This document shows, piece after piece, positions 7,896 through 34,771 of a stretch of DNA of 64,000 nucleotides (the first letter of the stretch is position 1; every line of letters starts with the position of its first letter). The notes beneath the pieces are model-generated. The model did no database searches. It had not been told where the DNA came from and saw nothing but the letters and a program-made list of their open reading frames with translations. Position numbers and translations under genes: made by a program. Source of the stretch: an uncultured Solirubrobacterales bacterium (GTDB taxonomy: Bacteria; Actinomycetota; Thermoleophilia; Solirubrobacterales; Solirubrobacteraceae); NCBI GenBank assembly GCA_963787555.1, contig CAWBDI010000001.1:175410-239409 (forward strand), written 5' to 3'.

Positions 7896-8064
7896 TGCGA
7901 CCCGCCGCTGTCGCCGACAGGGGAAGGCGAGCGATCCTGGATCACCCGCACCCCGGCGCGAGGCGCCAAGGTGATCGCCCGGAACTGAACCTTCTCGAGC
8001 TCGGGGTCAGCGGCCTCGCACATCGTCGCGGCGTGGGCTCGGATGTGCCCGCCGTGAAACGGGC

Positions 8065-8940: not shown

Positions 8941-8963
8941 GCCGATCAGACGTTACCGTGCTA

Positions 8964-9071
8964 GGGCTCTGCCCCGCGGGCGGACTCGGGTTGCGCTTTG
9001 TATCGCCTGAGGGGCTGGATCGCTCCGGCGATACACAGCGCCACCCGGGCACGGGCCTGGAGGCAGAGCCC
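8964..9071. repeat. 108 bp imperfect palindrome in a divergent intergenic region
   Basis: GGGCTCTGCC (8964-8973) and GGCAGAGCCC (9062-9071) perfect 10 bp IR; inner arms 8988-9007 and 9027-9046 pair at 18/20. Confidence 0.85.
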
Positions 9072-9137
9072 ATCTGTCAAAGTAATTTCAAGCTTTCCGC
9101 CTACCGTGGGCGATGTCACGAGAAAGGTGGAGTCGTC

Positions 9138-12769: not shown

Positions 12770-12810
12770 TCCACCGCGCGGTCGGCCGCGTCGCCGTACA
12801 GTGGCCCTCA

Positions 12811-17121: not shown

Positions 17122-17132
17122 GGTCCGGCGCC

Positions 17133-17351
17133 ATGAACGCACGCGAATGGCTTGATGCTTACGCCGAGAAGCTCGGCACCTCCCCTCCCAGCACCGATGA
17201 GTTCAAGGCGGTGCTCGACCTCGCCGGGGAGGCGGCGCACTCGTCAGACCGGGTGGCCGCGCCCGTGGCATGCTGGCTTGCGGCGAAGGCCGGGGCCGGA
17301 CTCGAGGAGGCGATGAGGCTCGCCCGCGAGGTCAGCGCGAGCGATGGCTGA
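17133..17351 (+). CDS. DUF6457-like small actinobacterial protein
   Basis: W...LG...VLDLAGEAAHSSDRVAAPVACWL pattern. Confidence 0.65.
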   Translation: MNAREWLDAYAEKLGTSPPSTDEFKAVLDLAGEAAHSSDRVAAPVACWLAAKAGAGLEEAMRLAREVSASDG

Positions 17352-18513: not shown

Positions 18514-19892
18514 TGTCCTCGAACTGGACAGCCGCAGACGAGCGCGGCCGGGGCGCGGATCCGGCGGCAGGGAGCGGGGCCGATCTGCGCAGCGACGGCC
18601 GCGCGGCGCTGGAATGGGCGGCCAGCTACCTGGAACGCGTCGCCGAGCTGCCGGTGCTCGCCCAGGTCAGTCCCGGCGAGATCCGCGCTCGCCTGCCAAA
18701 AAGCGCGCCCGAGGAGCCCGAGCCGTTTGCAAACGTGCTCCGCGATCTCGATCAGGTGCTGCTGCCGGGCATCACGCACTGGCAGCATCCGCGGTACTTC
18801 GCCTACTTCCCGACCGGCGCCTGTGAGCCGGCGATCCTGGCAGAGATGCTGGCGGCGACTTTGAACTCGGTCGCGCTGCTGTGGCGGACCGCGCCGGCGG
18901 CCACCGAGCTCGAACACGTGGTGCTCGACTGGACCGCGGAGCTGCTGGGACTCCCACAGGGCTGGCACGGGCACATCGAGGACACGGCATCGACCTCGAC
19001 CCTGAGCGCGATCATCGTCGCGCGGGTCCTCACCGGACGCGATTTGATCGTGGCCTCCGACCAGGCGCACTCGGCGGCCGACAAAGCCGCTCGGATGCTC
19101 GGCATGCGACTGCGCAAAGTGCCATCGGATGAGCGGTTCCGTCTAATGGTGCCGGAGCTCGGGGATCTCAGCGAAGCGGCGGTCGTGATCGCGACGGTCG
19201 GCACCACGGCGACCACATCGGTGGATCCGGTGCCCGCGATTGCGGACGCCTGCAACGAGGCCGGTGCCTGGCTGCACGTGGACGCCGCCTACGCCGGCAC
19301 GGCGATGGTGTGTCCGGAGCACCGCTGGGCGTTCGCCGGCGTTGATCGCGCCGACTCGCTGGTGGTCAACGCGCACAAGTGGATGCTGACGCCGATGGAC
19401 TGCTCGCTTCTGTGGACGCGACGACCGGCGGACTTTCGCCGCGCGTTCAGCATGATCCCGGAGTTCCTGCGCACGCCCGACGCCGAGGACGCGCTCTCGC
19501 TCAGCGAGTATGGACCCGCTCTCGGCCGCCGCTTCCGGGCGCTGAAACTGTGGGCGGTGTTGCGCTGCATCGGGCGCTCCGGACTGCAAGCCCACATCCG
19601 CAACGGAGTGCAGCTCGCCGAGAAATTCGAGCGCTGGGTCGACGCCGAGCCCGGCTGGGAGGTGTGCGCGCCGCGGCCGTTCTCGCTGGTGTGCTTTCGC
19701 CTGTCCGGTTCGGACCAGCGCAATCAGGCGCTGCTCGAGCGCGTCAACGCCAGCGGCGAGATCTTCATCTCTCACGCGGTGCTCCACGGCCGCTACGCGT
19801 TACGACTTGCGATCGGCCAGATGAGCACGACCGAGGACGACGTTCGGCGGGCATGGGAGGTTCTGCGTCGCGAGGCGGCGGTCCTCGATTAG
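18513..19892 (+). CDS. PLP-dependent group II decarboxylase (aromatic L-amino acid decarboxylase-like)
   Basis: PGITHWQHPRYFAYFP, LHVDAAYAG, PLP lysine NAHKWM, RRFRALKLW; ATG 18513 overlaps previous stop. Confidence 0.92.
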   Translation: MSSNWTAADERGRGADPAAGSGADLRSDGRAALEWAASYLERVAELPVLAQVSPGEIRARLPKSAPEEPEPFANVLRDLDQVLLPGITHWQHPRYFAYFPTGACEPAILAEMLAATLNSVALLWRTAPAATELEHVVLDWTAELLGLPQGWHGHIEDTASTSTLSAIIVARVLTGRDLIVASDQAHSAADKAARMLGMRLRKVPSDERFRLMVPELGDLSEAAVVIATVGTTATTSVDPVPAIADACNEAGAWLHVDAAYAGTAMVCPEHRWAFAGVDRADSLVVNAHKWMLTPMDCSLLWTRRPADFRRAFSMIPEFLRTPDAEDALSLSEYGPALGRRFRALKLWAVLRCIGRSGLQAHIRNGVQLAEKFERWVDAEPGWEVCAPRPFSLVCFRLSGSDQRNQALLERVNASGEIFISHAVLHGRYALRLAIGQMSTTEDDVRRAWEVLRREAAVLD

Positions 19893-19910
19893 CGCGCCTC
19901 TGTTGGTGCT

Positions 19911-19927
19911 CTTATGAAGTTCTTACC
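19911..19927 (+). promoter_or_regulatory. Direct-repeat box CTTATG-N5-CTTACC
   Basis: 11 bp phased hexamers 11 nt before the response regulator ATG; related boxes at 21834, 30503, 32743, 33561. Confidence 0.5.
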
Positions 19928-19938
19928 TTCAGCGCGTC

Positions 19939-20607
19939 ATGCTCACGAACGTGCGCGTACTGATCGCAGAGGATGAGCGCCGTCTCGCTGAAGCGATCGC
20001 ACGCGGGCTGAGGCGCGAGGGGATGGCGGTCGACCTGGCGCCAGATGGGTCCGATGCGTTGCTGAAGGCCCGGGTGATCCGCTACGACGTGATGGTCCTC
20101 GACCGTGACCTGCCGGGAGTTCACGGCGACGTGGTGTGTCGAACGGTGAGGGGCGAGCGACCCGAGGTGGGGATCCTGATGCTGACCGCTGCAGGCGCGC
20201 TCGAGGATCTCGTCGAGGGGCTCGCGTTGGGAGCCGACGACTACCTCGCCAAGCCTTTCCGGTTCGCCGAGCTCGTGGCCCGGATCCGCGCGCTCGCCCG
20301 CCGTTCGACCCCGAGTCGGCCGCCGGTTCTTCGTCATCGAGACCTGGAGCTCGACCCCGCCCGTCGCAGGCTGACTCGCAACGGAGAAGTGATCGAGCTC
20401 GCGCGCAAGGAGTTCGGCGTGCTCGAGGTGCTGATGAGCGCGGACCGGGCCACGGTTTCCGCCGAGGAGCTGCTCGAGCGGGTTTGGGATGAGCACACCG
20501 ATCCGTTCACCAACGTCGTTCGGATGACGATCATGACCTTGCGGCGCAAGCTCGGTGACCCACCCGTGGTGGAGACCGTAATCGGCGTCGGCTACCGGAT
20601 GGTGTGA
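19939..20607 (+). CDS. OmpR-family response regulator (CutR-like)
   Basis: VLIAEDE, VMVLDRDLPG, DDYLAKPF, DPFTNVVRMTIMTLRRKLG. Confidence 0.95.
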   Translation: MLTNVRVLIAEDERRLAEAIARGLRREGMAVDLAPDGSDALLKARVIRYDVMVLDRDLPGVHGDVVCRTVRGERPEVGILMLTAAGALEDLVEGLALGADDYLAKPFRFAELVARIRALARRSTPSRPPVLRHRDLELDPARRRLTRNGEVIELARKEFGVLEVLMSADRATVSAEELLERVWDEHTDPFTNVVRMTIMTLRRKLGDPPVVETVIGVGYRMV

Positions 20608-21848
20608 TGCGGCTTCGCCTGCCACGACCGAAGCTCGATGGTCCCGCGCCGACGATCCGGCTGCGGATGACTGTTCTCTACGGGCTGATGTTCCTGCTCA
20701 CCGGGGCCGTGCTGCTGACGATCGGCTACGGGCTCGTGCGACACAACCTCAATGCCCACCATGACTTCCGCGCCGAGCTGCGCTCGCTTGGGCTTCCCGC
20801 GCCGGCGGGTCCACCGTTCTTCGGGCGCCTGGGGTTCGGCCCCGGGTCGCCCGGGGGGCGTGTGGCGCAGGCGGCAGCCGCGCAGCTCCGCAGCGACGCG
20901 CTGCACAAACTGCTCGTCGAGTACCTGCTGGCACTGGGGCTGATGACGATGATCGCGGTGGTGACGGGGTGGCTGCTCGCCGGCCGGGCACTGCGCCCGC
21001 TGCGCGACATCACAGCCACCGCGCGGCGCGTCTCCGGCGAGAACCTCGGCGAGCGGATCGGGCTGGTCGGGCCCGCCGATGAGCTCAAGCAGCTGGCCGA
21101 CACGTTCGACGGGATGCTGGAACGGCTCGACGCGGCGTTCGGCTCACAGCGCCACTTCGTCGCCAACGCTTCACATGAGCTGCGGACGCCGCTCGCGATC
21201 ATGCGCACCGAGGTCGACGTCGCGCTCGCGGACCCCGATGCTGATGCGATCGAGCTGCGAGCGATGGGCGAGGCGGTGCTGGAGACCGTCGACCGCTGCG
21301 AGCGGCTGATCGAGAGCCTGTTGATGCTGGCGCGCAGCGAGGCCGCCACGGGGGGCGGGGAGGAGGTCGATCTAGCCGCGATGGCCGCCTATTGCGTGAC
21401 CGATTTACACGCGCGCTCCGAGGAGGGCGGGGTCCAGGTCCGCGACGAGCTAGAGCCGGCGTGGACGCGGGGCGAGGCCGGCCTGCTCGAGCGGATGATC
21501 GCCAACCTGCTCGACAACGGGATTCGTCACAACCAGCGCGGCGGGTTTCTGGAGGTCCGCACGCGGGTGGTTGGCCCCACCGCGCAATTGCTCGTGCGCA
21601 ACGGCGGGCAGCCGATCGATCCCGCCACCGCGCAGACCCTCAGCGAGCCGTTCCGGCGCCTGGATCGGGCGGTGGGAGGGTTCGGGCTCGGCTTGTCGAT
21701 CGTGCGCTCGGTGGCAGAGGCGCACGGTGGCACGATCACCCTCACCGCGCCCGCGGAGGGTGGCCTCGAGGTCACGGTCGAGCTTCCCGCGATCGTGCCC
21801 GCGGCCAGCGCCTCTAAGCAAACGCCAAGAGCGCTTATGGAGAGCTGA
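20604..21848 (+). CDS. Sensor histidine kinase (CutS-like)
   Basis: Two TM, HAMP, FVANASHELRTPL, NLLDNGIRHN, GFGLGLSI. Confidence 0.94.
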   Translation: MMRLRLPRPKLDGPAPTIRLRMTVLYGLMFLLTGAVLLTIGYGLVRHNLNAHHDFRAELRSLGLPAPAGPPFFGRLGFGPGSPGGRVAQAAAAQLRSDALHKLLVEYLLALGLMTMIAVVTGWLLAGRALRPLRDITATARRVSGENLGERIGLVGPADELKQLADTFDGMLERLDAAFGSQRHFVANASHELRTPLAIMRTEVDVALADPDADAIELRAMGEAVLETVDRCERLIESLLMLARSEAATGGGEEVDLAAMAAYCVTDLHARSEEGGVQVRDELEPAWTRGEAGLLERMIANLLDNGIRHNQRGGFLEVRTRVVGPTAQLLVRNGGQPIDPATAQTLSEPFRRLDRAVGGFGLGLSIVRSVAEAHGGTITLTAPAEGGLEVTVELPAIVPAASASKQTPRALMES

Positions 21849-21850
21849 CG
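21834..21850 (+). promoter_or_regulatory. Direct-repeat box CTTATG-N5-CTGACG
   Basis: 14/17 identical to the box at 30503-30519; upstream of the exporter operon. Confidence 0.5.
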
Positions 21851-21996
21851 GGCGGCGCGTTACAACAGCGGTGGGAGGCCGTCTTTCGGTGCTCCCAGCC
21901 GATGGCGCTCAGCATCACCCCTCGTACTTGCCGGCAAGCAACCGTGCTCTCAGATCACGACACCCCGGGCTCGGGCAGCCGCTGACACGCCAGCGC

Positions 21997-23754
21997 ATGA
22001 GCCGCCATCGGGATAAGCCCGGCAGGCCCTGGCATCTCTACCTGCTGGGGCTGGCAGCGATTGCTGTTGCCGTGTTGGCCGTTGTTGAGATCGGACCGCC
22101 AAGCAGCTCCGCGCGGACGTCTCGAGAGGTCGTCACCGCGGAGCCGGGCGTCGTCCAGTCCACGGTCACCGGGACCGGAAACGTCGAGGCCGGTACGGAC
22201 GTCGACGCCAACTTCCGGGCGAGCGGAACGCTGTCGGCGGTCGACGTCTCGGTCGGCCAGCACGTAACTCAAGGGCAGCTGATGGCGACGCTGAACCCGA
22301 CCGTCGCGCAGCTGACGCTCGATCAGGCCGAGCAGAATCTCGCCGCCGCTCAGGACCAGCTGACCGCGATCGAGAACGGAACCGCCACCTCCAGCGCGGG
22401 CGCCGGCGGGGCTGGGGCGGCCGGGTCTAATTCGAGCGCCGCGAGCGGGAGCGGATCGACCGCCAGCACGGGCGCCACGGCGGCGGTCTTCGTGCCCGGC
22501 TCGAGCAGCACCGAGTTCGCCGCATATAAGCCCGGATCAGGGCGACCGCACTCCACGACCACCTCGTCGTCGTCGTCGTCGACGACGACGACGACCAGCT
22601 CGACGACGACCACCTCGACGCCGAAGAGCGCCAAGCCGAGCAGGCCGTCAGGGAGTTCGCCGAGCAGCGGCGCGAGGTCTTCTTCGAGTGGAAGCACACC
22701 GCAGAGCTCTTCGAGCCGCCCGAGCGGCGCCGGCGCCGGGGGAGGCGCTGGAGGCGGCTCCACGACCCGGGCAACCACGACCACCAGCACGAGCACCACG
22801 ACGACGCCCTCGCCGGCGAGCATCGCGTCGGCGCAAGCCTCGGTGTACGCCGCGCAAGCCAGCGTCCAGAACGCCCAGACCGCGCTGGCGAACACCAAGC
22901 TGTACGCGCCGGCCAGCGGCACGATCGTCTCGCTCGCGAACCTCTCGCCGGGCGACACGGTCTCGGCCGGATCGAACTCCAGCGCGTCAGGCAGCACTTC
23001 GTCCTCGGGCAGTTCCTCGAGCGGCGGCACCGGGAGCTCCGGCGCCAGCGCGACCGCCGGCAGCCTCGGCGGCGCGAGCGGGTCCTCGTCCTCGTCCTCG
23101 GGCGGGGGCTCGGGCGGCTCGTCGGGTGGCTCGAGCTCGCCGTTTGCGGAGATCGTCGACACCAGCAGCCTGACGATGACTGTCGCGTTCAGCGAATCGG
23201 ACATCAGCAAGGTTCACGTGGGGCAGCCGGCGACGATTACGATCGATGCCCTCAGCGGGGTCCAGCTGGCGGCGCATGTGAGCGCGATCTCGACCGTTGG
23301 GACAACCAGCAGCGGGGTGGTCTCCTACGACGCGACCTTGACGCTCGACCAGACCGACTCCCGGGTGAAGCCGGGGATGAGCGCCTCGGCGTCGGTGATC
23401 GTCGGCCAGGCGCAGGGCGTCACGGTGCCAAACCAGGCGGTAACCGGAAGCGGCTCGCTGGGCACGGTCAACCTGCTGAAGGGCGGCAAGACCGTGCCGC
23501 AGCAGGTGGTCGTGGGGTTGCGAGGAGACAGCCGGACGCAGATCATCGGCGGGCTCGAGGCGGGTCAACAGGTGGTGGTCACGATCACGCTGCCCTCGCT
23601 CAGCGGCTCGCCCACCAGCACCAGCGGCGCGAGCGGAACCCTCGGCGGCGGCCGCTTCGGCGCGGGCGGGTTCGGCGGTGGCGGCTTTGGCGGTGGCGGC
23701 GGCCTTGGCGGTGGCGGCGCGTTCTTCCGCGCCGGCGGCGGAGGGACGCCGTGA
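21997..23754 (+). CDS. Membrane fusion protein (MacA/HlyD-like) with very long Ser/Thr/Gly low-complexity inserts
   Basis: N-terminal TM; lipoyl halves [24 protein letters not shown] and [11 protein letters not shown]; [27 protein letters not shown]. Confidence 0.85.
22566..22595. repeat. Perfect 30 bp palindromic microsatellite (GTC)5(GAC)5
   Basis: Read directly; encodes a poly-Ser then poly-Thr run. Confidence 0.9.
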
Positions 23755-24581
23755 TGGCTCGCCCGGCTCGCCGTCCTCCCCGGCCGGCAGTGCTGCGCGC
23801 GCAGCGGATGCTGCAGGCGCGCAAGTCCCCCAAGCCGCAGCCCGCGAGCGCGCGAGAGCGCCCGGTACGCAGGCCTGACGCTTCGGTGATCGAGCTGCGG
23901 GAGGCGCGCAAGACCTACCAAGTCGGCGACATCGCGGTACACGCGCTGCGAGGCGTCAGCATGACCGTCGAACGCGGCGAGTACCTCGCGATCGTCGGCG
24001 CCTCCGGGAGCGGCAAGACGACGTTGATGAACGTCCTTGGCTGTCTCGATCACGTGAGCGCCGGCAGCTACCGGCTGAACGGGCTCGACGTGCGCGGGTT
24101 CGACGAGGACACGCTGGCGGACGTGCGCAACCGTGAGATCGGCTTCGTGTTCCAGAACTTCAATCTGATCCCGCGCACGCGCGCGCTGGCGAACGTGGAG
24201 CTGCCACTCGCCTACGGGGGTCTGCACCGCGAGGCTCGCCGGCAACGAGCGTTGGCCGCGCTGCAGCAGGTGGGACTCGGGCAACGAGTCGACCACTTCC
24301 CGAACGAGTTGTCGGGCGGTCAGCAGCAGCGCGTGGCGATCGCGCGAGCGCTCGTGACCAACCCGGCGATGATCCTCGCCGATGAGCCCACCGGCGCGCT
24401 GGACACCGTTTCCTCCGCCGAGGTGATGAGCATCTTCCGCCGGCTGAGCGATCAGGGGCGCACGATCATCCTGATCACCCACGAGCAGGACGTGGCGGCC
24501 CACGCGCGCCGGGTGATCCGCCTCAGCGACGGCAGGATCGTCGCCGACGAGCGGCCCGAGAGCACGGAGCTGGTCACGTGA
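23751..24581 (+). CDS. ABC ATP-binding protein (MacB/LolD-like)
   Basis: [43 protein letters not shown]. Confidence 0.95.
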
Positions 24582-25795
24582 TCGAGACGATCCGAGTTGC
24601 GGTGGGAGGGCTGACCGCGAACAAGCTTCGCACCGCCTTGACGGTCCTCGGGCTGATGATCGGGGTCGGCTCGGTGATCGTGCTGATCGCGGTCGGCACC
24701 GGCTCCTCCGACGCCGTCGAGAAGCAGATCGATGCGCTTGGCAGCAACGTCCTGCTGGTTACGACCACGCCGACGCTCGGCGGCCTGCGTCGTCAGGCCA
24801 CCAGCAGCACCCAGCTGACGCTGGCCGACGCCGACGCGCTGGGTAATCAGTTCGAGGCCCCGGACGTGCAGAGCGTCTCGCCGGTGGTCAGCGCCAACGG
24901 CGTGACCGTGACCTACGACAACACCACGTACACGCCGTCCTCGTTCGTGGGCACCACGCCGAGCTACGAGCAGGCCCGCAGCTATTCGATGGCCGAAGGT
25001 TCGTGGTTCACCAGCGCGGACCTGAGTAACCACAACCGGGTGCTGGTCGTTGGCCCCACGGTCGTCAGCGAGCTGTTCGGCGGCCAGGACCCGGTCGGCG
25101 ACACCGTTCAGGTCAACGGCACCGGTTACCAGGTGATCGGGGTGACCGCGTCGAAGGGATCCAACGGAACCTCCAATCAGGACGACGTCGGGATAGCACC
25201 CCTGACTGCGGTGCAGGACACCCTCACCGGCTACGGGAGCATCAACCAGATCGTCGTTCAGGCCAAGTCGCGCCAGCAGTTGAACGCGGCGCAGACCGAG
25301 GTCACCAACATCCTCAATCAGCTCGACCCGCCCACTGCCGGCTCCAGCGCGACGAGCAACTTCAACGTGATCAACCAAAGCTCGATCCTGCAGGCCTCGA
25401 CCTCCAGCAGCAAGGTGTTCACGACGCTGCTCGGGGAGGTCGCGGCGATCTCCCTGCTGGTCGGCGGGATCGGGGTGATGAACATCATGCTGGTCTCGGT
25501 CACCGAGCGGACCCGTGAGATCGGGATCCGAAAAGCGGTCGGCGCCCGGCGCGGCGACATTCTGATCCAGTTCCTGGTCGAGGCGGTGCTGGTGTCGTTC
25601 TTCGGCGGCGTCGCGGGCGTGATCGCCGGCATCATCGGCAGCCAGTTCAAGATCGCCGGCGTCCAGCCCTCGATCGCGCCCTATTCGATCGCCCTCGCGT
25701 TCGGCGCCGCCGTCCTGATCGGGCTGTTCTTCGGCACCTATCCCGCTGGTCGCGCGGCTTCGATGCGACCGATCGAGGCCCTGCGCTTCGAGTGA
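24578..25795 (+). CDS. MacB/FtsX-family ABC permease
   Basis: [53 protein letters not shown]. Confidence 0.95.
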
Positions 25796-25833
25796 GCAAG
25801 CACGTCCATTGAAACCCACCACAGGAAACGATC

Positions 25834-26529
25834 ATGCACGCAATCCCCTATGACAGCCCCCAGGAGGATTGGGACCGCTACGAGGAAGGCGAGAGCGACG
25901 AGCCGCTCCCGGGCCGTCCCCGTCGCCAGTTCTTCAACCGTCGTAGCGCCGCGCTGTTTGCCGTGGTCGTGGGCGCAGTCTGCTTCTACGCGGGCGTCCG
26001 CGTCGAGAAGAGCCAGCTGAGCAGCTCGACCAGCACCGCGCTGCCGTCGTCCACCGGGGCGGGCGCGGGCGCGCGGACGGGAGCGGCAGGCGCGGGATCC
26101 CGCGCGGGAGCCGCTGCCGCCTCCGCGGGCCGCGGCTTCGGAGGCGGTGGCGGAGGGGCGGCGGCGTTCGCCGGCGCCGGCGGCGGCGCCGGCGGGAGTG
26201 CGTCGTTCGGAACCGTCAGCGGCATCAGCGGGGACACCTTCTTCATCACCGAGAGCTCCGGCAACACGGTCAAAGTCAAGCTCTCGAGCGCGACCAAGAT
26301 CACCAAGAGCGTCACCGTCGGCAAGTCAGCCGTTCGTCCCGGCGACACGGTCGTGATCCGCGGCCTGAACTCGAACGGCACCGTGAGCGCGACGTCGATC
26401 AGCGACTCCGGCGCCGTCCTCTCGGCCTTCGGCGGCGGCTCGTCCGGCGCTGGCGGCTCCGGCAGCGGCGGCTCCGGTAACGCGAGCTCGGCCGTCAGTT
26501 CCCTGTTTGGCTCCGGAAGCGGCGGCTGA
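25834..26529 (+). CDS. Membrane-anchored Gly-rich protein with DUF5666-like OB-type domain
   Basis: Acidic N-terminus, one TM, Gly/Ala linker, GTVSGISGDTFFI...TKITKS...VRPGDTVVIRG. Confidence 0.6.
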   Translation: MHAIPYDSPQEDWDRYEEGESDEPLPGRPRRQFFNRRSAALFAVVVGAVCFYAGVRVEKSQLSSSTSTALPSSTGAGAGARTGAAGAGSRAGAAAASAGRGFGGGGGGAAAFAGAGGGAGGSASFGTVSGISGDTFFITESSGNTVKVKLSSATKITKSVTVGKSAVRPGDTVVIRGLNSNGTVSATSISDSGAVLSAFGGGSSGAGGSGSGGSGNASSAVSSLFGSGSGG

Positions 26530-26564
26530 TCGACATCGTTCTGAACACAGAAAGGACTCGAACC

Positions 26565-27158
26565 ATGATCATCAACATCGCGATGCGGCGGGCGCCAGTG
26601 GCGCTTGCCGTGCTCGTCACCGGCTGCGCGCTCGCTGCGTGCGGCAGCAGCTCGAGCAGCTCGAGCACCTCCACCAGCTCGGCCAGCGCAAGCTCGACCG
26701 CGGTGGCATCGTCCGGCAGCTCCACCTCGAGAAGCGCACGGCGCGCCGCGCTGGTCGCCTGCCTGAAGAGCCACGGCGTGACGTTGCCCTCGCGGCCCGT
26801 CCGCCCTCCCTCTGGAGGGGCGGGCGCCGGCGCGCCCGGAGGCGGAGGCGGGTTCTTCTTCGGCGGCGGCACGCCCAACCCGAAGCTGCAAGCCGCGCTG
26901 AAGGCCTGCGGCGCCAACTTCAGCGGCCGGGGGCGCTTCCGCGGGGCGATCTCGCATCAGAACATCGAGAAGTACGTCGCCTGCGTGCGCGCGCACGGTT
27001 ACAACATGCCGAATCCCAACTTCTCGGGCCACGGCTCCGTGTTCCCGGCCAACATCCGATCCAACCCCAAGTTCCAGGCCGCCAGTCGCGCCTGCCAGAG
27101 CTTGCTGTTCCCGCCGCGGAGCGGGAGCACGTCGTCGAGTACCGCGTCGAGTGCCTAG
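26565..27158 (+). CDS. Lipoprotein with two C-x3-HG repeats
   Basis: Lipobox LAAC; ACLKSHGVTLP...LKAC and ACVRAHGYNMP...SRAC repeats. Confidence 0.7.
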   Translation: MIINIAMRRAPVALAVLVTGCALAACGSSSSSSSTSTSSASASSTAVASSGSSTSRSARRAALVACLKSHGVTLPSRPVRPPSGGAGAGAPGGGGGFFFGGGTPNPKLQAALKACGANFSGRGRFRGAISHQNIEKYVACVRAHGYNMPNPNFSGHGSVFPANIRSNPKFQAASRACQSLLFPPRSGSTSSSTASSA

Positions 27159-27197
27159 GCGCATGCAGCACGATCGCCTACTAGCGCAGGAGGAACA

Positions 27198-28034
27198 ATG
27201 AAGCTCAAACTACCCTCGAGCAACCGAGCGGCGAAGGCCGGCCCGCCCGCCTCGCCGCCGGTCCCGGCAGCCTCGCCGCCGCCTGCGACGCCGCCGGGCG
27301 CGCCGAACCCGTCGGCGCTATCCGGCGCGCAAGAGCCGGCGACAGCGCCCGGTACCGTGGTCGGGCAAGTGCTACCGATCTACTTCGTCGGCGACGAGTC
27401 ACACTCGATGGCCGGGGCACCGATCGCGGCCGTCAATCAGGGCCTGCTCGACCTTCGCGACGAGGTCGCCAAGCATCCCCTGATCGGCAAGAAGGTACGC
27501 TTCGGCGTGATCACCTTCGCGGACACCGCCGAGACGCGGTTGGAGCTCTCGGAGCTGAGCGAGGAGCTGATCCTGCCGGCGCTGTCGCCGAGAGGTCGCG
27601 GGACCAGCTATGCGAGTGCGCTCGAGGCGCTGCGTCATACGATTCCTGGGGATGTGGCGCTGCTCAAGAGCGGCGGCTACCAGGTACATCGTCCCTCGGT
27701 TTTCTTCCTCAGCGACGGCCAGCCGACCGAGAAGGAGGAGAAGTGGCGGGCGCGTCTGGACGAGCTCAAGGACGCCGGCTTCAAGGAGCGCCCCAACATC
27801 CTCGCGTTCGGAGTCGGCGACGCTGAGCCCAAGGTCATCCAGCAGCTCGCCAGCACGCCCCGCTACGCCTTCATGATGAGCGACGGGGTGTCGACTGCGG
27901 GCGCGATCTCCGAGTTCGCGGCGTCGATGCTGGGCTCGATGGTGTCCTCGGCGGAGCGGCTCGAGCGTGGCGAGCAAACGATCGAGTTCGAGAAGCCCGA
28001 GGGGTTCGTCCAGCTCGACGCGCCCCTGGTGTAG
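27198..28034 (+). CDS. von Willebrand factor A domain protein (TerY-like)
   Basis: PIYFVGDESHS MIDAS (DxSxS), GTSYASAL, VFFLSDGQPT, ILAFGVG; AGGAGG SD at 27188-27193; Pro-rich N-terminus. Confidence 0.88.
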   Translation: MKLKLPSSNRAAKAGPPASPPVPAASPPPATPPGAPNPSALSGAQEPATAPGTVVGQVLPIYFVGDESHSMAGAPIAAVNQGLLDLRDEVAKHPLIGKKVRFGVITFADTAETRLELSELSEELILPALSPRGRGTSYASALEALRHTIPGDVALLKSGGYQVHRPSVFFLSDGQPTEKEEKWRARLDELKDAGFKERPNILAFGVGDAEPKVIQQLASTPRYAFMMSDGVSTAGAISEFAASMLGSMVSSAERLERGEQTIEFEKPEGFVQLDAPLV

Positions 28035-28043
28035 CCGCTCGCG

Positions 28044-29051
28044 ATGGCGTCGTTTGAGCGGGACCGCAGCGCTGGCCGGGCAAACGATGCCAGGCGGCCC
28101 GACCGGCCCCTACGCCTCCCGAGGGCCGCGGTGTTGGGGCGTCCCGGCCGTCTGGCGCGAGGCCCGCTGACGATTGGCGATCCCGCTCCCGCGGTCGAGG
28201 TGCGGCTTGCGGCCGCCGAGCCCTACCGCCCCGATTCAATCGCCGACGGAGGCAGCGCGTTCGGCCTGACGGCGAGAGCGGCATCCGTTCGAGGCCTGTA
28301 CAAGCGCTATCTGGGTGGTCCGCGACAAGACGACCTGTGCCTGGGCCTGCATGAGCCTTCCCGCACCGTGATCGCGGCCGTCGCCGACGGCGTCTCGAGC
28401 GCGCCGCGCTCGCACCTCGGCGCGGCGCTTGCGGTGCGCCATGCGGCGGCCGCGGTCGCGCGCCAGCTCGACGACGGCGCCGATGAGCTCCGCTGGGAGC
28501 AGGTCTTCGAGCACGCCGCTTGGGCGCTCGTCGATGAGCAACGCCGCGCTGACGGGAGTGCGGACGCCGGCGTGGAGGACGCCGCGGCGTCTTTGGCGAC
28601 GACGCTGGTGGTCGCTGCGATCACCGCCGCGCGCTCCGAGGCTGCGGTCGACGGGAACCGCGGCCCGGTCAGGGAGGAGCCCACCCCGCGCGTGCAGCTG
28701 GCAGCGGTCGGCGATTCACCGGCGTTCCTGCTCGGGGACGGCGCTTTCAAGCCGATCGCCGGTGACTTCGACAGCCCCGATGCGCTGCTTGGCGGCGGCG
28801 TGCAGGCGCTGCCGCGCAGCACCCGTCCGGCGTACGAAGATACGCGCATGCTCGAGTCCGGCCACGCGTTGCTGCTGTGCACGGATGGGCTGGCGCTGCC
28901 GCTGGCCGGCGGTGCGAGCGAGGTGGGCCGGATCTTCGCCCGCGAGCTATCGAGTCCTCCGGACGTGCTCGACTTCGCCCGGCTGCTCGATTTCAGCCGC
29001 AGTACCTACGACGACGATCGCACCCTGGTCGCCGTCTGGTGGAGGCCATGA
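28044..29051 (+). CDS. PP2C-like protein phosphatase (TerY-P type)
   Basis: PRQDD, AAVADGVSSA, QLAAVGDS, LLLCTDGL, DDRTLVAV metal-binding motifs. Confidence 0.88.
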   Translation: MASFERDRSAGRANDARRPDRPLRLPRAAVLGRPGRLARGPLTIGDPAPAVEVRLAAAEPYRPDSIADGGSAFGLTARAASVRGLYKRYLGGPRQDDLCLGLHEPSRTVIAAVADGVSSAPRSHLGAALAVRHAAAAVARQLDDGADELRWEQVFEHAAWALVDEQRRADGSADAGVEDAAASLATTLVVAAITAARSEAAVDGNRGPVREEPTPRVQLAAVGDSPAFLLGDGAFKPIAGDFDSPDALLGGGVQALPRSTRPAYEDTRMLESGHALLLCTDGLALPLAGGASEVGRIFARELSSPPDVLDFARLLDFSRSTYDDDRTLVAVWWRP

Positions 29052-30475
29052 GCACGCTTGATTTGGGAAGCGGGGCCGGGTCGCGCCGGCGCGGCACCGG
29101 CCCGGGCTCGGGAGTCGATCGCGGCAGCGTTACGCACGCCCACCGGGCTCCCAACGGAGCCCGGGCTCCATTCTGCGCGATCGGTCTCGAGGCCTTCGGT
29201 GAGCTCGCGCCGATCAGCCGGCTGAGCGGGCAGGGCCGGGTTCACCGGCCCGCGAACACGCCCCGGGCGCTTGCTGGCGGACCGATCGTCGTCAAGCTGT
29301 ATCGCCGCTCGCCGCCGCCTGCCGCGGCGCAGGTGCTCGCCGAGATGGTCGCTTGGAAGCGGTCGCTGGAAGAGACGCAGCGCCTGCGGCTCGCGCACCT
29401 GGCCGCGTGGCCGCTGGCGGTCGTCACCTCCGGCGGACAGCCGGTGGGAATCGCGATGCCGGACGTCAGCGAGCGCTTCGCGGTGCCGTTCGTGATGCCG
29501 AGCGGTCGCCGCCCGCACGTGCTGCTGGCGCTCGAGCACCTGCTGGGAGGGGATGCCTATCTGCAGATGCGGGGCCTGGACGTGCGGCTCGACACCGCGA
29601 GGCGAGCGCTGATTGCCGAGCGAATCAGCATGGCGCTCGCGTTTCTGCACCGTCACGCGATCGTCGCGAGCGACCTCGCGCCGAGCAACCTCCTGGTCTC
29701 GTTTGGCGCCCAGGGCCCAGCGGTGTGCTTCATCGACTGCGACTCGATGGTGTTCCGCGGCCGCCAGGCGCTGGCGTCGGTGGAGACCGGCGACTGGAAC
29801 ATCCCGGCGGGATTCTCCGAGCTGGCTCGTACCCGCGGCGCCGATGCGTACAAGTTGGGCCTCGTGGTGCTCCGCCTGTTTGCCCGCTCCCACGACGCGC
29901 GCGCGGTGGAGCCCCACCGGGACGACGTGCCCGCGCAGCTGCGCCCGCTGCTCTCGCGCGCGCTCGCGCCGGACGCCGCAAACCGCCCGCCGGCGGGCGA
30001 GTGGCAGCGCGCGCTCCGCCAGCTGCTCGCCGATCGGCACATCAACGAGCGCTACCCGGGACCCGCTCCCCGCGAGCCCGTCGCGAGCGCTCGACCACCC
30101 ACCGCGCGCGCGAATGCCCGGCCGCTCACCGCGCGCCCGAGCGCTCGGCCGCTCACCACGCCCGCGAGCGCTCCCGGAATCATGGCCTCCGCGCGACCGT
30201 CCCCACACGCGTCCGCGCCGATCGGGGCACGGCGGACCGTCGCGATCCTCTGGATCCTCGCCGGGACCGTGGTGCTGTTCCTGCTGCTGTCGCGGCTGTT
30301 CGCGGCCGCGATTCCACAGGGCATCGAAGGTGGCGCTACCGGGGTGGGCGGGGGCGCGGGCGGCGGCGTCCCCTACACCTACCGGTACTCCTACCCGCCG
30401 CCGGGTGGGGGGCAGTTCCGGGGCGCGGGGCAAGCGCTGTTCCCCGGCGGGGGGCAAGGCACGCAGTCCCCGTAG
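29048..30475 (+). CDS. Ser/Thr protein kinase-like protein with C-terminal TM
   Basis: Gly loop SGQGRV, VVKLY lysine, catalytic SDLAPSNLL, FIDCDS in place of DFG, DAYKLGL; Pro/Ala linker then TM VAILWILAGTVVLFLLL; ATG overlaps phosphatase stop. Confidence 0.82.
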   Translation: MSTLDLGSGAGSRRRGTGPGSGVDRGSVTHAHRAPNGARAPFCAIGLEAFGELAPISRLSGQGRVHRPANTPRALAGGPIVVKLYRRSPPPAAAQVLAEMVAWKRSLEETQRLRLAHLAAWPLAVVTSGGQPVGIAMPDVSERFAVPFVMPSGRRPHVLLALEHLLGGDAYLQMRGLDVRLDTARRALIAERISMALAFLHRHAIVASDLAPSNLLVSFGAQGPAVCFIDCDSMVFRGRQALASVETGDWNIPAGFSELARTRGADAYKLGLVVLRLFARSHDARAVEPHRDDVPAQLRPLLSRALAPDAANRPPAGEWQRALRQLLADRHINERYPGPAPREPVASARPPTARANARPLTARPSARPLTTPASAPGIMASARPSPHASAPIGARRTVAILWILAGTVVLFLLLSRLFAAAIPQGIEGGATGVGGGAGGGVPYTYRYSYPPPGGGQFRGAGQALFPGGGQGTQSP

Positions 30476-30502
30476 CGCCCCCAGAGCCCCTCGCGAGGAT
30501 GG

Positions 30503-30519
30503 CTTACGGAGACCTTACG
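30503..30519 (+). promoter_or_regulatory. Direct-repeat box CTTACG-N5-CTTACG
   Basis: Perfect hexamer repeat at 11 bp spacing just after the kinase stop. Confidence 0.55.
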
Positions 30520-30789
30520 CCTGCTTCCTAGACTCCGGCTCATGTCGTTTCGGCGTCCTCAGATGGAGGTCATGGAGGACGGGACGAGGCACCCCTGCAC
30601 CACGTCCGGTTGTCGCCGCCTCTCAGTTCGCCGATCGGCTGCGACGAAGTGCGCCTCGTCGCAGAGCGGGCTACCCCCCGCAATCCGAGGCACCGGCGGC
30701 GGCCTGGACCGCGACTCCCATCCTGAGCCGCTCGCCGGTACCTTGGGCTCTTAGCACAGCGCGGGCGGGTTACGCGATACTGCAATGGC

Positions 30790-32715
30790 GTGAGCGAACC
30801 GCAGCTGTTGTGGAGCCCCTCTGAGGAGTGGATCGAACGGGCCACGGTGACCCGATATCAAGCGTGGCTCGGTGAGCGCCACAACCTGCGCTTCGACAGC
30901 TACGAGGAGCTCTGGAGATGGTCGGTCGACGACCTCGAGGCGTTCTGGGCCTCGATCGTCGAGTTCTTCAACGTTCGCTTCGAGGTTCCCTCAGAGGTGG
31001 TGCTGGGCGACCCCCAGATGCCGGGGGCGCAGTGGTTCCCGGGCGCTCGCATCAGCTACGCGGAGCACATCTTCCGCGACAAGGATCCCGATGCGGTCGC
31101 GCTGCGAGCCGCGTCGGAGCTGCAGTCGCTCAGCGAGTGGACCTGGGATCGGCTGCGCTCGGAGGCCGCCGCGATCGCTTCTGGGTTGCGCTCCGAAGGC
31201 GTCGAAGCGGGAGATCGCGTCGCCGCCTACATGCCGAACATTCCGGAGACGGTCGCGGCGCTGCTGGCGTGCTCCTCGATCGGAGCGATCTGGTCCTCGG
31301 CCGCGCCCGAGTTCGGCGCCCGCAGCGTAATCGACCGCTTCGCCCAGATCGAACCGAAGGTGTTGCTGGCGATCGATGGCTATAGGTACGGCGGCAAGGA
31401 CTTCGACAGAAGCGCGATGGTGGAGGAGATCGCGGGCTCGATTCCGTCGCTGCGGCGCGTGGTGAGGCTCTCCTACCTCGAAGGGGGCGGCTGGGAGGAC
31501 GGATTTCTCGGCCCCGACCCGCTCGAATTCGCACAGCTGCCGTTCGACCATCCGTTGTGGGTGCTGTACAGCTCGGGCACCACTGGGCTGCCCAAGCCGA
31601 TCGTCCACAGCGCCGGAGGCATCCTGCTGGAGCAGATCAAGTCGACTTACCTGCACCTCGATGCCCAGGCCGGCGACCGCCTGTTCTGGTTCTCGACCAC
31701 CGGCTGGATGATGTGGAACTTCCTTGTCGGCGTGCTGCTGAGCGAAGCCTCGATCGTGCTGTACGACGGCAACCCCGGGTATCCGGATCTGGGCACGCTT
31801 TGGAGCCTCGCCGCCGACACCGAGATGACCTGCTTGGGCACCAGCGCCGCGTTTATCGCGGGTTGCATGAAGGCCTCAGTGACGCCGCGCGAGGGCCGCG
31901 ACCTGAGCGCGCTACGCTCGGTCGGCTCGACCGGCTCGCCGCTTGCCCCCGAGGGCTTCCAGTGGATCTACGATCAGCTGGGCGCCGATACGTGGCTGTT
32001 CTCCACTTCCGGCGGTACCGACCTGTGCACCGCGTTCGTCGGCGGCGTGCCGACGCTGCCGGTGTACTTGGGCGAGCTGCAGGGCCGGATGCTGGGAGCA
32101 TCGGTGGAGGCATGGGATCCCTCTGGCCAGCCGCTGGTCGGCGAGGTGGGCGAGCTCGTGATCACCAAGCCGATGCCATCGATGCCGATCTTCTTCTGGG
32201 GCGATGAGGATGGGTCCCGATACCGCGAGAGCTACTTCGAGCAGTACCCGGGTATCTGGCGCCATGGCGACTGGATAGAGATCACCCCACGCGGGACCGC
32301 GATCATCTACGGGCGCTCTGACTCGACGATCAACCGGGGCGGGATCCGGATGGGGACCAGCGAGATCTACCGCGCGGTGCTCTCGGTTGAAGATGTGCTC
32401 GACGCGCTCGTCGTCGATGTGCCCAAGGAAGGCACCGATGGCTGGATGCCGATGTTCGTGGTGCTCCGCGAGGGAGCTGAGCTGGACGACGACTTGACCA
32501 AGACGATTCGCACCCGGATCCGCGAGGACTGCTCTCCTCGCCACGTGCCCGACGAGATCCAACAGATCTCCGAGGTTCCCCGGACACTGTCGGGCAAAGT
32601 GCTCGAGGTCCCCGTGAAGCGAATCCTGATGGGCGTGCCGGCCGATCAAGCCGCGAGCCGAGAGTCGCTCGCGAACCCCGAGGCGCTCGACTACTTCGTC
32701 GAGCTGAAAAGCTAG
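30790..32715 (+). CDS. Acetoacetyl-CoA synthetase
   Basis: YSSGTTGLPKPIVH, STTGWMMWN, STSGGTD, WRHGDW, GRSDSTINRGGIRMGTSEIY. Confidence 0.93.
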   Translation: MSEPQLLWSPSEEWIERATVTRYQAWLGERHNLRFDSYEELWRWSVDDLEAFWASIVEFFNVRFEVPSEVVLGDPQMPGAQWFPGARISYAEHIFRDKDPDAVALRAASELQSLSEWTWDRLRSEAAAIASGLRSEGVEAGDRVAAYMPNIPETVAALLACSSIGAIWSSAAPEFGARSVIDRFAQIEPKVLLAIDGYRYGGKDFDRSAMVEEIAGSIPSLRRVVRLSYLEGGGWEDGFLGPDPLEFAQLPFDHPLWVLYSSGTTGLPKPIVHSAGGILLEQIKSTYLHLDAQAGDRLFWFSTTGWMMWNFLVGVLLSEASIVLYDGNPGYPDLGTLWSLAADTEMTCLGTSAAFIAGCMKASVTPREGRDLSALRSVGSTGSPLAPEGFQWIYDQLGADTWLFSTSGGTDLCTAFVGGVPTLPVYLGELQGRMLGASVEAWDPSGQPLVGEVGELVITKPMPSMPIFFWGDEDGSRYRESYFEQYPGIWRHGDWIEITPRGTAIIYGRSDSTINRGGIRMGTSEIYRAVLSVEDVLDALVVDVPKEGTDGWMPMFVVLREGAELDDDLTKTIRTRIREDCSPRHVPDEIQQISEVPRTLSGKVLEVPVKRILMGVPADQAASRESLANPEALDYFVELKS

Positions 32716-32831
32716 GCCACGCCGTCAGGCGGCGGCGAGTTTCTTACGCTTCTCTGAGCTTCGGCCGAGAAGATGCATGGCACAGGCGGCTGGGATGTCC
32801 GGCCGCCCGGCCATCTGCAGGAGTCACCACT

Positions 32832-33557
32832 TTGCAGGTCAACATCAAGCGCAAGCTCGCGATCGGGACCACCGCGCTCGCCGCGGCCGCCTTTGCCGGC
32901 GGCGCCTACGCTGCCACGCAGGAGCCGGGAGCCACAACCCGTCAGGCGTTTCTGAACGACGTCGCCAAGCGGCTCAACGTAAATCCCGCACAGCTGAGCG
33001 CGGCGCTTCGTGGCGCGCTCGACGATCAGCTGCAAGCCGCGGTCGCCGCCGGCAAGCTCACGCAAGCGCAGGCGGACGCGATCAAGCAGCGGATCCAGAA
33101 TGGCGGGGCGCAGCCGAGAGGATTGTGGTTCGGACAGCGACCGCCCGGCCCCCCGCACGTGGCCGTTGGAGGGTTCGGGTTGACCGCAGCCGCCAAATAC
33201 CTGGGCCTGAGCGAGCGCCAGCTCCTCGACCAGCTGTCGGCCGGTAAGACCCTCGACCAGGTCGCCAAGGCGCGCGGCAAATCGGTCGCGGGACTCGAGA
33301 GCGCGCTCAGCTCCGCGCTGCGGTCCCGGCTCCAGAAGGCGGTTGCCGACAAGCAGATCACCAGCGCGCAAGAGCAGCAGATCCTGAGCGGCCTCTCGCA
33401 GCGCCTAAACCAGGAGATCAACGGCACTTATCCCGGTCCGGGGTTCCGAATGCACGGCAGCTTCCGCAGCTCGCACCGTCCCCTTGGCCCGCCCGCAGGG
33501 CCCGGAGCGGTGGCGCCCGGCTCGCCGCCAGCGCCTCCATCGGGGCCGGCTTACTGA
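32832..33557 (+). CDS. Secreted alpha-helical hypothetical protein
   Basis: Signal peptide ending AYAA; repeated GKLTQAQADAI / KQITSAQEQQI helices; AGGAG SD before TTG. Confidence 0.7.
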   Translation: MQVNIKRKLAIGTTALAAAAFAGGAYAATQEPGATTRQAFLNDVAKRLNVNPAQLSAALRGALDDQLQAAVAAGKLTQAQADAIKQRIQNGGAQPRGLWFGQRPPGPPHVAVGGFGLTAAAKYLGLSERQLLDQLSAGKTLDQVAKARGKSVAGLESALSSALRSRLQKAVADKQITSAQEQQILSGLSQRLNQEINGTYPGPGFRMHGSFRSSHRPLGPPAGPGAVAPGSPPAPPSGPAY

Positions 33558-33658
33558 GCTCTTACGCTCTTCTTCTCAGCCTCTGAAAGGTTTCTCACAG
33601 GGGCCTGCTGTACTGAACTTGAGATTTCAGCTACGCGCATCAGGAGAGCAAACTGACC

Positions 33659-34771
33659 ATGAAGACCCTCAGCCGTCTGATTCCAGTGATCGGCGGCGCC
33701 GTGGCAGGGGGAGTCATCGCGTTGATAGTCGCCAGCGGCGGCGCTTCGACTCACTCGGTCACGACGACCGTCGTCCAGCCATCCAGCCCGTCGACGATCC
33801 CCACGTCGCTCAGCTCCGGCCGTGGCATGACCGTCAATCAGATCTATCGCTCCGCCAGCTCGGGAGTGGTGGACATCGACGTGACCGAGCAGGCCCCGAA
33901 TCAGGGCGGGGGCGGCTTTGGCTTCGGCGGCCCCGGCGGCGGATCGCAGCAGTCGCAAGGCGAAGGCGCGGGCGTGGTCTACGACAAGAAGGGCGACATC
34001 CTCACCGATGAGCACGTCGTCGCGAACGCCTCCTCGGTGACGGTCCACTTCCAGGACGGTCTGCAGGCCTCCGCGAAGGTGCTCGGCAGCGACGCCTCAA
34101 CCGACGTGGCGGTGATTCGCGTCAGCGTTCCCGCCTCCGAGCTTCATCCAATTCCGTTTGCGGACTCCTCGCAGGCCCAGGTCGGCGACCCGGTTGTCGC
34201 GATCGGCAGCCCCTTCAGCCTCCCCGAGACGACGACCGCGGGGATCGTGAGCGCCACCGGCCGTAGCATCACCGCGCCGAACAACTACACGATCGCAGGC
34301 GCGATCCAGACCGACGCGGCGATCAACCCGGGCAACTCCGGCGGACCGCTGCTTGATGCGAACGCCCACGTCCTCGGCCTGAACGATCAGATCCAGACCA
34401 ACTCCGGCTCGAGCGCCGGCGTCGGCTTCGCCACCCCATCCAACGAGGACGCGCGAATCGCCAACGCGATCATCGCGGGCAGCCCGGTCAAGCATGCCTA
34501 CGTCGGCGTCCAGCTGAACGGCAGCTCGACGGGCGGCGCCGGTATCAGCGCAGTGTCGCCCGGCTCGCCCGCCCAGAACGCGGGGCTCCAGGCGGGCGAG
34601 GTGATCACCGCGGTGAACGGCACCGCGATCAGCTCAACCGAGCAGTTCATCGCCACGGTCGACAACTACTCCCCGGGCACGACGATCACGCTCACCGTCA
34701 AGAGCGGCGGCGCGAGCAAGAACGTCAAGGTGACGCTCGGGACCCGTCCGAACGCGCCGAGCACGGGCTAA
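33659..34771 (+). CDS. htrA: HtrA/DegP-family serine protease with PDZ domain
   Basis: LTDEHVV, TDVAV, IQTDAAINPGNSGGPL catalytic triad motifs; C-terminal PDZ. Confidence 0.92.
   Translation: MKTLSRLIPVIGGAVAGGVIALIVASGGASTHSVTTTVVQPSSPSTIPTSLSSGRGMTVNQIYRSASSGVVDIDVTEQAPNQGGGGFGFGGPGGGSQQSQGEGAGVVYDKKGDILTDEHVVANASSVTVHFQDGLQASAKVLGSDASTDVAVIRVSVPASELHPIPFADSSQAQVGDPVVAIGSPFSLPETTTAGIVSATGRSITAPNNYTIAGAIQTDAAINPGNSGGPLLDANAHVLGLNDQIQTNSGSSAGVGFATPSNEDARIANAIIAGSPVKHAYVGVQLNGSSTGGAGISAVSPGSPAQNAGLQAGEVITAVNGTAISSTEQFIATVDNYSPGTTITLTVKSGGASKNVKVTLGTRPNAPSTG

Follow-up and report, generated by a model that had tools for sequence, protein, structure and literature searches.

Gene content of the locus

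A 64,000-nucleotide stretch of DNA from an uncultured Solirubrobacterales bacterium (contig CAWBDI010000001.1, positions 175,410 to 239,409 of the forward strand; hereafter, the window) was analyzed, with the focus placed on three adjacent genes encoding a von Willebrand factor A (vWA) protein, a PP2C-type phosphatase, and a Ser/Thr kinase. This triad is located directly behind the genes of a two-component system and a MacAB-type exporter on the same strand. An earlier description generated from the sequence alone (the original prediction) had treated the whole arrangement, positions 19939-30475, as one unit. The genes of the block are listed below.

19939..20607, + strand: OmpR-family response regulator (RR); Response_reg 5e-25, Trans_reg_C 2e-20
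20604..21848, + strand: sensor histidine kinase (HK); HAMP-HisKA-HATPase_c
21997..23754, + strand: HlyD/MacA-type membrane fusion protein (MFP); TIGR01730 2.4e-38, HlyD_3, HlyD_D23
23751..24581, + strand: ATP-binding cassette (ABC) ATPase, MacB/LolD type; ABC_tran 1e-32, MacB N-terminal half 2.7e-81
24578..25795, + strand: MacB-type permease; MacB_PCD 5.9e-43, FtsX 9.1e-21
25834..26529, + strand: single-pass transmembrane (TM) protein, 231 aa; Gly/Ser-rich region, small C-terminal beta-rich domain
26565..27158, + strand: Cys-containing lipoprotein, 197 aa; lipobox LAAC/VTGC
27198..28034, + strand: YegL/TerY-type cytoplasmic vWA protein, 278 aa; Pfam VWA 1.1e-10, VWA_2 1.7e-7
28044..29051, + strand: Ser/Thr phosphatase, 335 aa; Pfam PP2C_2 (PF13672) 2.4e-13
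29048..30475, + strand, starting with ATG: YegI-family Ser/Thr kinase, 475 aa; DCD in the DFG position

The block itself was borne out, but two gene starts were corrected. The matches of orthologues to the RR begin at its codons 3-5, and its true start is most likely GTG 19951 rather than 19939. Similarly, ATG 21997 is the most likely start of the MFP gene, in place of the open reading frame (ORF) start 21571. The identities first given to the genes upstream of the triad, from the RR to the lipoprotein, agreed with the Pfam and NCBIfam matches; the same scans assigned neither the 231-aa TM protein nor the 197-aa lipoprotein to a family. In loci with and without the triad, the TM protein gene is kept after MacB and the lipoprotein gene after that of the TM protein.

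In the case of the two-component system, the RR combines a receiver with a winged-helix domain, and the HK has two TM helices on either side of a loop of approximately 60 residues, followed by HAMP-HisKA-HATPase_c, which identifies an OmpR-family pair. Similarly, the permease with MacB_PCD and FtsX, the ABC ATPase, and the HlyD-family adaptor identify a MacAB-type tripartite exporter; a scan of the genes in 17-35 kb showed no TolC-type outer-membrane exit duct. The set resembles known MacAB-type (type VII ABC) exporters that are accompanied by an OmpR-type RR and a HAMP-containing HK. However, the operon here adds the TM protein, the lipoprotein, and the triad, and its MFP, which has an N-terminal TM helix, contains very long low-complexity inserts rich in Ser, Thr, and Gly. 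One of these inserts spans approximately 250 residues. Long Ser/Thr/Gly-rich stretches with GGGGFGGGG-like tails were also observed in the other predicted extracytoplasmic parts, namely, those of the TM protein, the lipoprotein, and the kinase tail (30300-30475).

The original prediction of a vWA protein with an intact metal-ion-dependent adhesion site (MIDAS), a PP2C phosphatase, and a kinase with an IDCDS motif was confirmed by Pfam matches and invariant residues. The MIDAS is complete (D66-x-S68-x-S70, read as DESHS, with T136 and D173) and invariant in 28 homologues, and the protein carries a Pro/Ala-rich N-terminal extension. The acidic (Asp) motif residues of the phosphatase are kept in 22 homologues. 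The kinase reached just 22 bits against Pfam Pkinase, which is under the gathering score; its residues K83, D209, N214, D230, and D232 are invariant among close and distant relatives, and FIDCDS occupies residues 228-233. Its C-terminus was likewise as first described, with a Pro/Ala-rich linker, one TM helix (approximately 396-420), and a Gly/Tyr-rich tail of 55 residues instead of a nucleic-acid-binding domain. This layout is conserved in relatives, together with a PYxYQYY-like motif, and the predicted topology places the kinase domain in the cytoplasm and the short tail outside. An AlphaFold2 model of the vWA protein from 28 close homologues had a mean predicted local distance difference test score of 49 and was thus unsuited to a fold search. 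In a PDB sequence search, the vWA protein had no match and the kinase matched generic eukaryotic kinases only.

The tight coupling of the genes was also confirmed. The lipoprotein stop at 27158 and the vWA ATG are separated by 39 bp containing a GGAGGA ribosome-binding site, the vWA and PP2C genes by 9 bp, and the PP2C stop overlaps the kinase start as ATGA. Terminator-like sites on the + strand were absent within 22100-31600. A sigma-70-type promoter consensus was not found in 19000-33500, which is uninformative for a high-GC actinobacterium.

Homology of the triad to YegL-PphC-YegI

As the JGI annotation of the vWA homologues was 'YegL', the triad was compared with the E. coli K-12 locus yegL-pphC-(yegJ)-yegI. 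The vWA protein aligned with YegL end to end (BLASTP 2e-15), and hhalign gave a probability of 98.3% (E 2e-14) over 191 columns. The kinase matched YegI at 2e-9 in BLASTP and at a probability of 96.8% in hhalign over 240 columns, covering the whole kinase domain. Moreover, the two kinases share VxKxY, AWPxA, GxxMPxVS, and IDxDS, the last being IDCDS here and IDSDS in YegI. Both phosphatases belong to PP2C_2, with a Pfam E-value of 2.4e-13 here versus 5.7e-52 for PphC. The order of the three genes is identical in both, and the triad can be regarded as a homologue of the E. coli YegL-PphC-YegI trio.

The E. coli proteins have been partly characterized by Rajagopalan and Dworkin. Although YegI carries DSD at the DFG position, it is active as a kinase, prefers Mn, and is integral to the membrane; in most strains, the pphC and yegI genes share an ATGA overlap (bioRxiv 10.1101/819920), as the phosphatase and kinase genes do here. 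PphC dephosphorylates YegI, and E. coli is the only source of such a pair for which kinase autophosphorylation and its reversal by the partner phosphatase have been shown (bioRxiv 10.1101/303594). A D-x-D motif replacing DFG and insertion into the membrane, predicted for the kinase here, are common to both kinases. The differences are also clear. Sequence identity is merely 25-30%, approximately; the catalytic-loop Asn is absent from YegI and kept here (N214); YegI crosses the membrane twice and has a large C-terminal region in the cytoplasm (weak HHH_5 match), whereas the kinase here has one TM helix and a short outer tail; the Pro/Ala-rich extension is found only on the vWA protein here and not on YegL; and the E. 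coli trio forms its own unit, whereas the triad here lies inside an exporter operon.

In the E. coli K-12 stretch that was inspected (NC_000913.3, 2143000-2160000), yegL-pphC-yegI adjoin the divergent mdtABC, and the stretch ends inside mdtC. The neighboring operon continues as mdtABCD-baeSR, an efflux operon that also encodes an adaptor protein and a two-component system for envelope stress. This neighborhood echoes the exporter arrangement here, although it may be a coincidence.

The size of the family was determined by a kinase-domain search of 1.84 billion representatives of 50%-identity clusters, which yielded 1245 relatives at E <= 0.001, of which 736 also passed E <= 1e-10. A hydrophobic helix follows the kinase domain in 99 of 112 full-length relatives, most of which then carry 130-340 more residues. 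The original prediction had regarded the membrane anchor and the IDCDS motif as unusual. As the helix is present in most of these relatives and YegI has a DSD loop and is membrane-integral, both are already described traits of the whole YegI kinase family.

The original prediction had also filed the triad under TerY-P. As described in eLife PMC11090510, TerY-P combines a TerY-like vWA protein with a PP2C phosphatase and a Ser/Thr kinase (Anantharaman, Iyer & Aravind 2012) in a triad thought to be a metal-sensing phosphorylation switch, and it has been reported as an anti-phage system (Gao et al. 2020). The three-domain architecture, encoded as a tightly linked triad, is identical here, but this filing was not supported by profile comparison. 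Up to E 10, no PADLOC family, TerY included, matched the vWA protein, and the phosphatase likewise drew no PADLOC hit. The STK_OB hit was confined to kinase residues 195-251 and scored 13.6 bits (E 0.0054); the hits to several other kinase models were weak too. E. coli YegL itself matched the TerY model marginally (E 0.032). Moreover, the kinase here ends in a TM helix and lacks the C-terminal OB fold or zinc ribbon of TerY-P kinases, and no DNA/RNA-processing or ter genes are linked.

Distribution of the triad and its linkage to the exporter

Genome scans were performed with one genome per species. The kinase clade is confined to Solirubrobacterales, save for one 2.1-kb contig from a bin labelled Gemmatimonadales. 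Within it, 45 distinct kinases, including that of the window, are encoded in the colinear block RR-HK-MFP-ABC-MacB-TM protein-lipoprotein-vWA-PP2C-kinase. The adjacency of triad and exporter therefore extends beyond this genome to approximately 44 other Solirubrobacterales genomes of species level. As their kinases share just 54-67% identity with the window kinase, the exporter-linked lineage is not shallow.

The spacing within the orthologous loci is tight. The gap between the lipoprotein and vWA genes has a median of 20 bp, with several overlaps of 4 bp or 1 bp, and no insertions were seen at this junction in the approximately 44 other genomes. The vWA-PP2C gap has a median of 9 bp, the PP2C and kinase genes overlap, and the widest gap of the block, with a median of 96 bp, separates HK from MFP. 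By contrast, the syntenic gene that follows the kinase gene, encoding an acyl-CoA synthetase, lies approximately 0.4 to 9.6 kb away from it, depending on the locus. Since the colinear block is kept with very short or overlapping gaps, we infer that the exporter genes and the triad are almost certainly co-transcribed.

In a neighbor-joining tree, the exporter-linked kinases formed one clade with triad-only duplicates nested inside, and triad-only lineages were sister to it. The exporter-triad linkage thus arose once.

Outside this clade, the triad was found in different surroundings. A pattern scan aimed at other phyla returned mostly Solirubrobacterales again. In nine of nine distant contexts examined, vWA and PP2C_2 genes are located beside the kinase gene, with varying order and orientation, and a MacB exporter was not found near the triad in any of them. 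These contexts include a Streptomyces chromosome (L100) and a Streptomyces linear plasmid (L190), where the triad is flanked by insertion sequence (IS) elements with a restriction endonuclease gene nearby. On the metagenome contig L101, the triad lies within a mobile element with relaxase, methylase, and recombinase genes (16000-21500). In L102 and L104 (about 6500-13000), it is beside genes for a TraG/VirD4-like coupling protein and a Big_7 protein, and in L105 (5611-8673), beside a gene for a SIR2_2-AAA_16-TPR protein; L103 and L106 are further metagenome contigs on which the vWA and PP2C_2 genes are present. As the distant contexts keep the triad without a MacB exporter, the triad is a self-contained, sometimes mobile cassette. 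No relatives were found in 50,697 phage records.

Candidate binding sites of the response regulator

The sequence CTTAY-N6-CTKAC is a direct repeat, and its 11-bp period is typical of OmpR-family sites. It was found at the following positions in and next to the block.

19911..19926, + strand: candidate RR box 1 (CTTATGAAGTTCTTAC)
21834..21849, + strand: candidate RR box 2 (CTTATGGAGAGCTGAC); covers the HK stop codon and precedes the MFP gene
30503..30518, + strand: candidate RR box 3 (CTTACGGAGACCTTAC), followed by TAGACT after 10 nt

With one mismatch allowed, the window contains five copies of the box, where 0.41 would be expected by chance; as many as five were not seen in any of 100 shuffles. 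In approximately 45 orthologous 20-kb loci, it is found before the RR gene, at the end of the HK gene before MFP, and after the kinase gene, and almost nowhere else. It precedes the RR match by 28-44 bp in about half of the orthologous loci and follows the kinase gene by 7-490 bp in most of them. A box upstream of the vWA gene was never found in these loci, and the exporter-only and triad-only loci have neither the box nor the conserved RNA described below. The box is proposed as a candidate binding site of the adjacent OmpR-type RR, and its placement fits one regulon.

Downstream of each box, at a distance of 10-11 nt, lies a hexamer that reads nAnnnT (or, at box 2, TACAAC). This layout would correspond to promoters whose -35 element is replaced by an activator site. 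At box 1, 11 nt lead to CATGCT and a further 7 nt to GTG 19951. As this layout puts the transcription start at that GTG, it suggests that the RR mRNA is leaderless. At box 2, the conserved CGCTACAAC occurs 11 nt downstream, before the MFP gene. The original prediction had proposed that the two-component system induces both the exporter and the triad. In line with this proposal, the candidate boxes indicate that the two-component system probably controls the exporter-triad block; binding by the RR is the part that we infer from box type and placement.

In the alignment of loci L006-L096, a palindrome, GGCAAnnnnTTGCC, is located a few bases before the MFP ATG in most orthologues; in the window and its two closest relatives, a longer sequence of another kind stands at this position. 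A further match at 45883 (- strand, one mismatch) was taken as chance because it lies inside a long ORF.

A conserved structured RNA after the kinase gene

Directly 3' of box 3, a conserved RNA element was found.

30639..30746, + strand: three-hairpin RNA element (core)

Its transcript probably starts near 30542. The element is present in one copy per exporter-linked locus, in the same orientation, and its sequence is far better conserved than the coding genes. Even in loci with a convergent next gene, it stays on the side of the kinase gene, so that it is not simply the leader of the downstream gene. RNAalifold gave an invariant 7-bp hairpin with the loop GUGCGCC and a long hairpin with the apical loop GACUCCC, and a variable middle hairpin was seen in the single-sequence fold of the window copy (fold z = -3.7). 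In the alignment, 95.8% of cells were paired, compared with 28-52% when the partners were slid, and changes on both sides of a pair occurred in 26 cells versus 9.0 +/- 2.4 in shuffles, none of 500 reaching 26. The predicted long hairpin is thus backed by covariation. Rfam gave nothing at gathering score in the whole window and chance-level matches only around the element. Our reading is that the element would be a small RNA under RR control.

In five loci (L003, L004, L018, L030, and L079), a second ABC ATPase gene is located between the kinase gene and the box-plus-RNA, which then lie 3-5 kb past the kinase gene; in L003, L004, and L018, this ATPase gene is followed by a MacB-like permease match. 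Since the second ATPase gene precedes the box-plus-RNA in these loci, the RNA marks the far end of a longer block.

Proposed role of the triad and alternative explanations

The interpretation that we favor, with a confidence somewhat above even, is that a YegL-PphC-YegI-type triad has become part of a MacAB-type operon under RR/HK control and acts after transcription, at the membrane. In this model, the RR/HK pair would work through CTTAY-N6-CTKAC boxes standing in for the -35 element and would switch on three units, namely, the RR/HK genes themselves, the operon of eight exporter and triad genes, and the small structured RNA downstream. The kinase, anchored in the membrane beside exporter components, would autophosphorylate and also phosphorylate a partner; the vWA protein encoded next to it and a cytoplasmic portion of the exporter set are the likeliest candidates. 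PP2C would reset the phosphorylation state. The MIDAS site of the vWA protein would make a metal-dependent protein contact that depends on this state. The triggering cue would be envelope stress, in line with the sensing of envelope attack that the original prediction had assumed.

The triad kind, the D-x-D kinase, and the membrane anchor are already known; what is new is the placement in a MacAB-type operon with its own two-component system in one uncultured lineage. The original prediction had not recognized this combination as described, and no description of a triad in such an operon was found in the literature. The position of the triad suggests an envelope-related job for an orphan signalling family. 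YegI-type kinases are numerous (the 736 clusters mentioned above), and their genes are nearly always accompanied by those for a vWA protein and a PP2C phosphatase. The operon offers a concrete hypothesis, an envelope- or export-linked phospho-switch with defined candidate partners. Moreover, the candidate RR box and the structured RNA would form a small regulon that is open to in vitro tests though the organism is uncultured. A likely mis-filing is also corrected, as the three-domain architecture alone should not be taken to mean a TerY-P anti-phage system.

Several observations weigh against this interpretation. As the linkage has a single origin and the neighboring genes for a pyridoxal phosphate-dependent decarboxylase, the acyl-CoA synthetase, and HtrA are syntenic too, the conservation could partly reflect shared descent. 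The co-occurrence across Thermoleophilia considered in the original prediction was not seen, the linkage being restricted to one clade. The nested triad-only duplicates adjoin unrelated genes, encoding an M50-CBS protease and PPK2, KdpD and Usp, or an APH-like kinase. The MacB permease scan also revealed MFP-ABC-MacB-TM protein(-lipoprotein) in a Conexibacter genome and in further Solirubrobacterales where the next 8 kb contain no triad; the exporter module is therefore older and independent. The PP2C gene has been lost in three distinct linked copies (L003, L004, and L085), and a vWA/PP2C deletion-fusion is present in L014. The relationship of the phosphatase to PphC is not significant beyond the Pfam level (BLASTP E 0.003 over 33 residues; hhalign 4.6%). 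Furthermore, no RNA run contained the window sequence, and just four DNA metagenome runs hold approximately 10% of its words.

A fourth exact box counts on both sides. Its location upstream of a protease gene outside the block agrees with the proposed regulation.

33550..33565, + strand: fourth exact box, 94 bp upstream of the HtrA-like protease gene
33659-34771: HtrA/DegP-like serine protease gene; Trypsin_2 and PDZ

On the other side, the exact box is found in this window only, and the orthologues keep only its second half-site, TCTTAC. HtrA was therefore rejected as a firm regulon member and is a possible member at most. Upstream of the HtrA orthologues, the conserved motifs GGTTTCTCA and CTGCTGTACTGGG were observed besides the half-site.

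The main rival explanation is that the triad is a neighbor by history, i.e., an autonomous, general-purpose signalling cassette, like the one in E. coli, that landed once behind the exporter operon and rides its transcript without a functional tie. The single origin, the existence of the exporter module alone, and the occurrence of the triad alone, beside the unrelated genes named above, in mobile elements, or among the IS elements of the Streptomyces plasmid, all agree with it. The loss of PP2C points the same way, as the metagenome-assembled genomes (MAGs) of L003 and L004 hold a second complete triad elsewhere (L040 and L017, respectively). However, a mere passenger does not readily account for a junction kept at a median of 20 bp in approximately 44 genomes at 54-67% kinase identity next to a downstream stretch of such variable length, nor for box 3 and the RNA coming after the kinase gene instead of after the lipoprotein gene. 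We regard this explanation as possible but clearly the less probable one. The PP2C losses and second triads also suggest that the phosphatase may act across paralogous triads. One triad-only paralogue (L027, 8466-11245) has two tandem kinase genes after vWA and PP2C; KdpD-like and Usp genes precede this triad, and an N-acetylmuramoyl-L-alanine amidase gene follows it.

A further explanation is modelled on the envelope-damage pathway of the P. aeruginosa H1 type VI secretion system (T6SS), in which the ABC-transporter-like complex TagTS and the lipoprotein TagQ feed envelope damage to the kinase PpkA, opposed by PppA (PMC7817224). Here, the triad would control the exporter in a similar manner, the MacB-type complex and the lipoprotein would sense and activate the kinase, and the output would be other than export, e.g., the vWA protein acting on another machine. 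The parts lists resemble each other, with an ABC complex and a lipoprotein encoded together with a membrane kinase, a PP2C phosphatase, and a vWA domain, and the kinase here has no sensor domain of its own, its outer tail being short. The resemblance is one of parts only. In contrast to TagQRST-PpkA-Fha1-PppA, the Pfam and NCBIfam results for the block revealed no FHA substrate protein and no T6SS or other secretion machine; PpkA carries its own vWA domain (PMC1262709), whereas the vWA protein here is separate and cytoplasmic; and the ABC system here, which includes a full MFP, resembles an exporter. Moreover, triad-only sister lineages have short tails too (35-60 residues), so the short tail predates the exporter linkage, and its origin together with the linkage was ruled out. 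This explanation is very improbable.

A broader version of the analogy may be stated more speculatively. The operon could be a monoderm counterpart of the TagQRST-PpkA-PppA logic, in which a MacB-type mechanotransmission complex and two accessory envelope proteins would report damage to a YegI-type kinase, the switch would tune export or another envelope process, and the whole would form a one-RR regulon with a dedicated small RNA. We consider this extension doubtful; if true, it would provide the first physiological role for the widespread, orphan YegL-PphC-YegI family, including the E. coli trio beside mdtABCD-baeSR.

An anti-phage defence of the TerY-P type, sensing infection and triggering a response, is very improbable: some distant relatives do lie beside the SIR2_2-AAA_16 gene (L105), in a mobile element (L101), or near the restriction endonuclease gene (L190), but, in addition to the failed profile matches and the TM helix described above, Pfam and NCBIfam scans revealed no nuclease or other effector nearby, the chromosomal context is a core one that is conserved and vertically inherited, the GC content is even over the whole window with no island context, and the phage records contain no relative.

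Comparison with the membrane-embedded, exporter-linked triad favored here can be extended to D. radiodurans. Its operon DRA0331-DRA0334 encodes a vWA protein, a Ser/Thr kinase, an FHA protein, and a PP2C phosphatase; a study of the kinase-phosphatase antagonism in vitro links this operon to radiation and DNA-damage signalling (bioRxiv 10.64898/2026.01.23.701218). The likeness is by gene content only, namely, vWA, Ser/Thr kinase, and PP2C in one operon, and the FHA domains of that operon set it apart from the block in the window.

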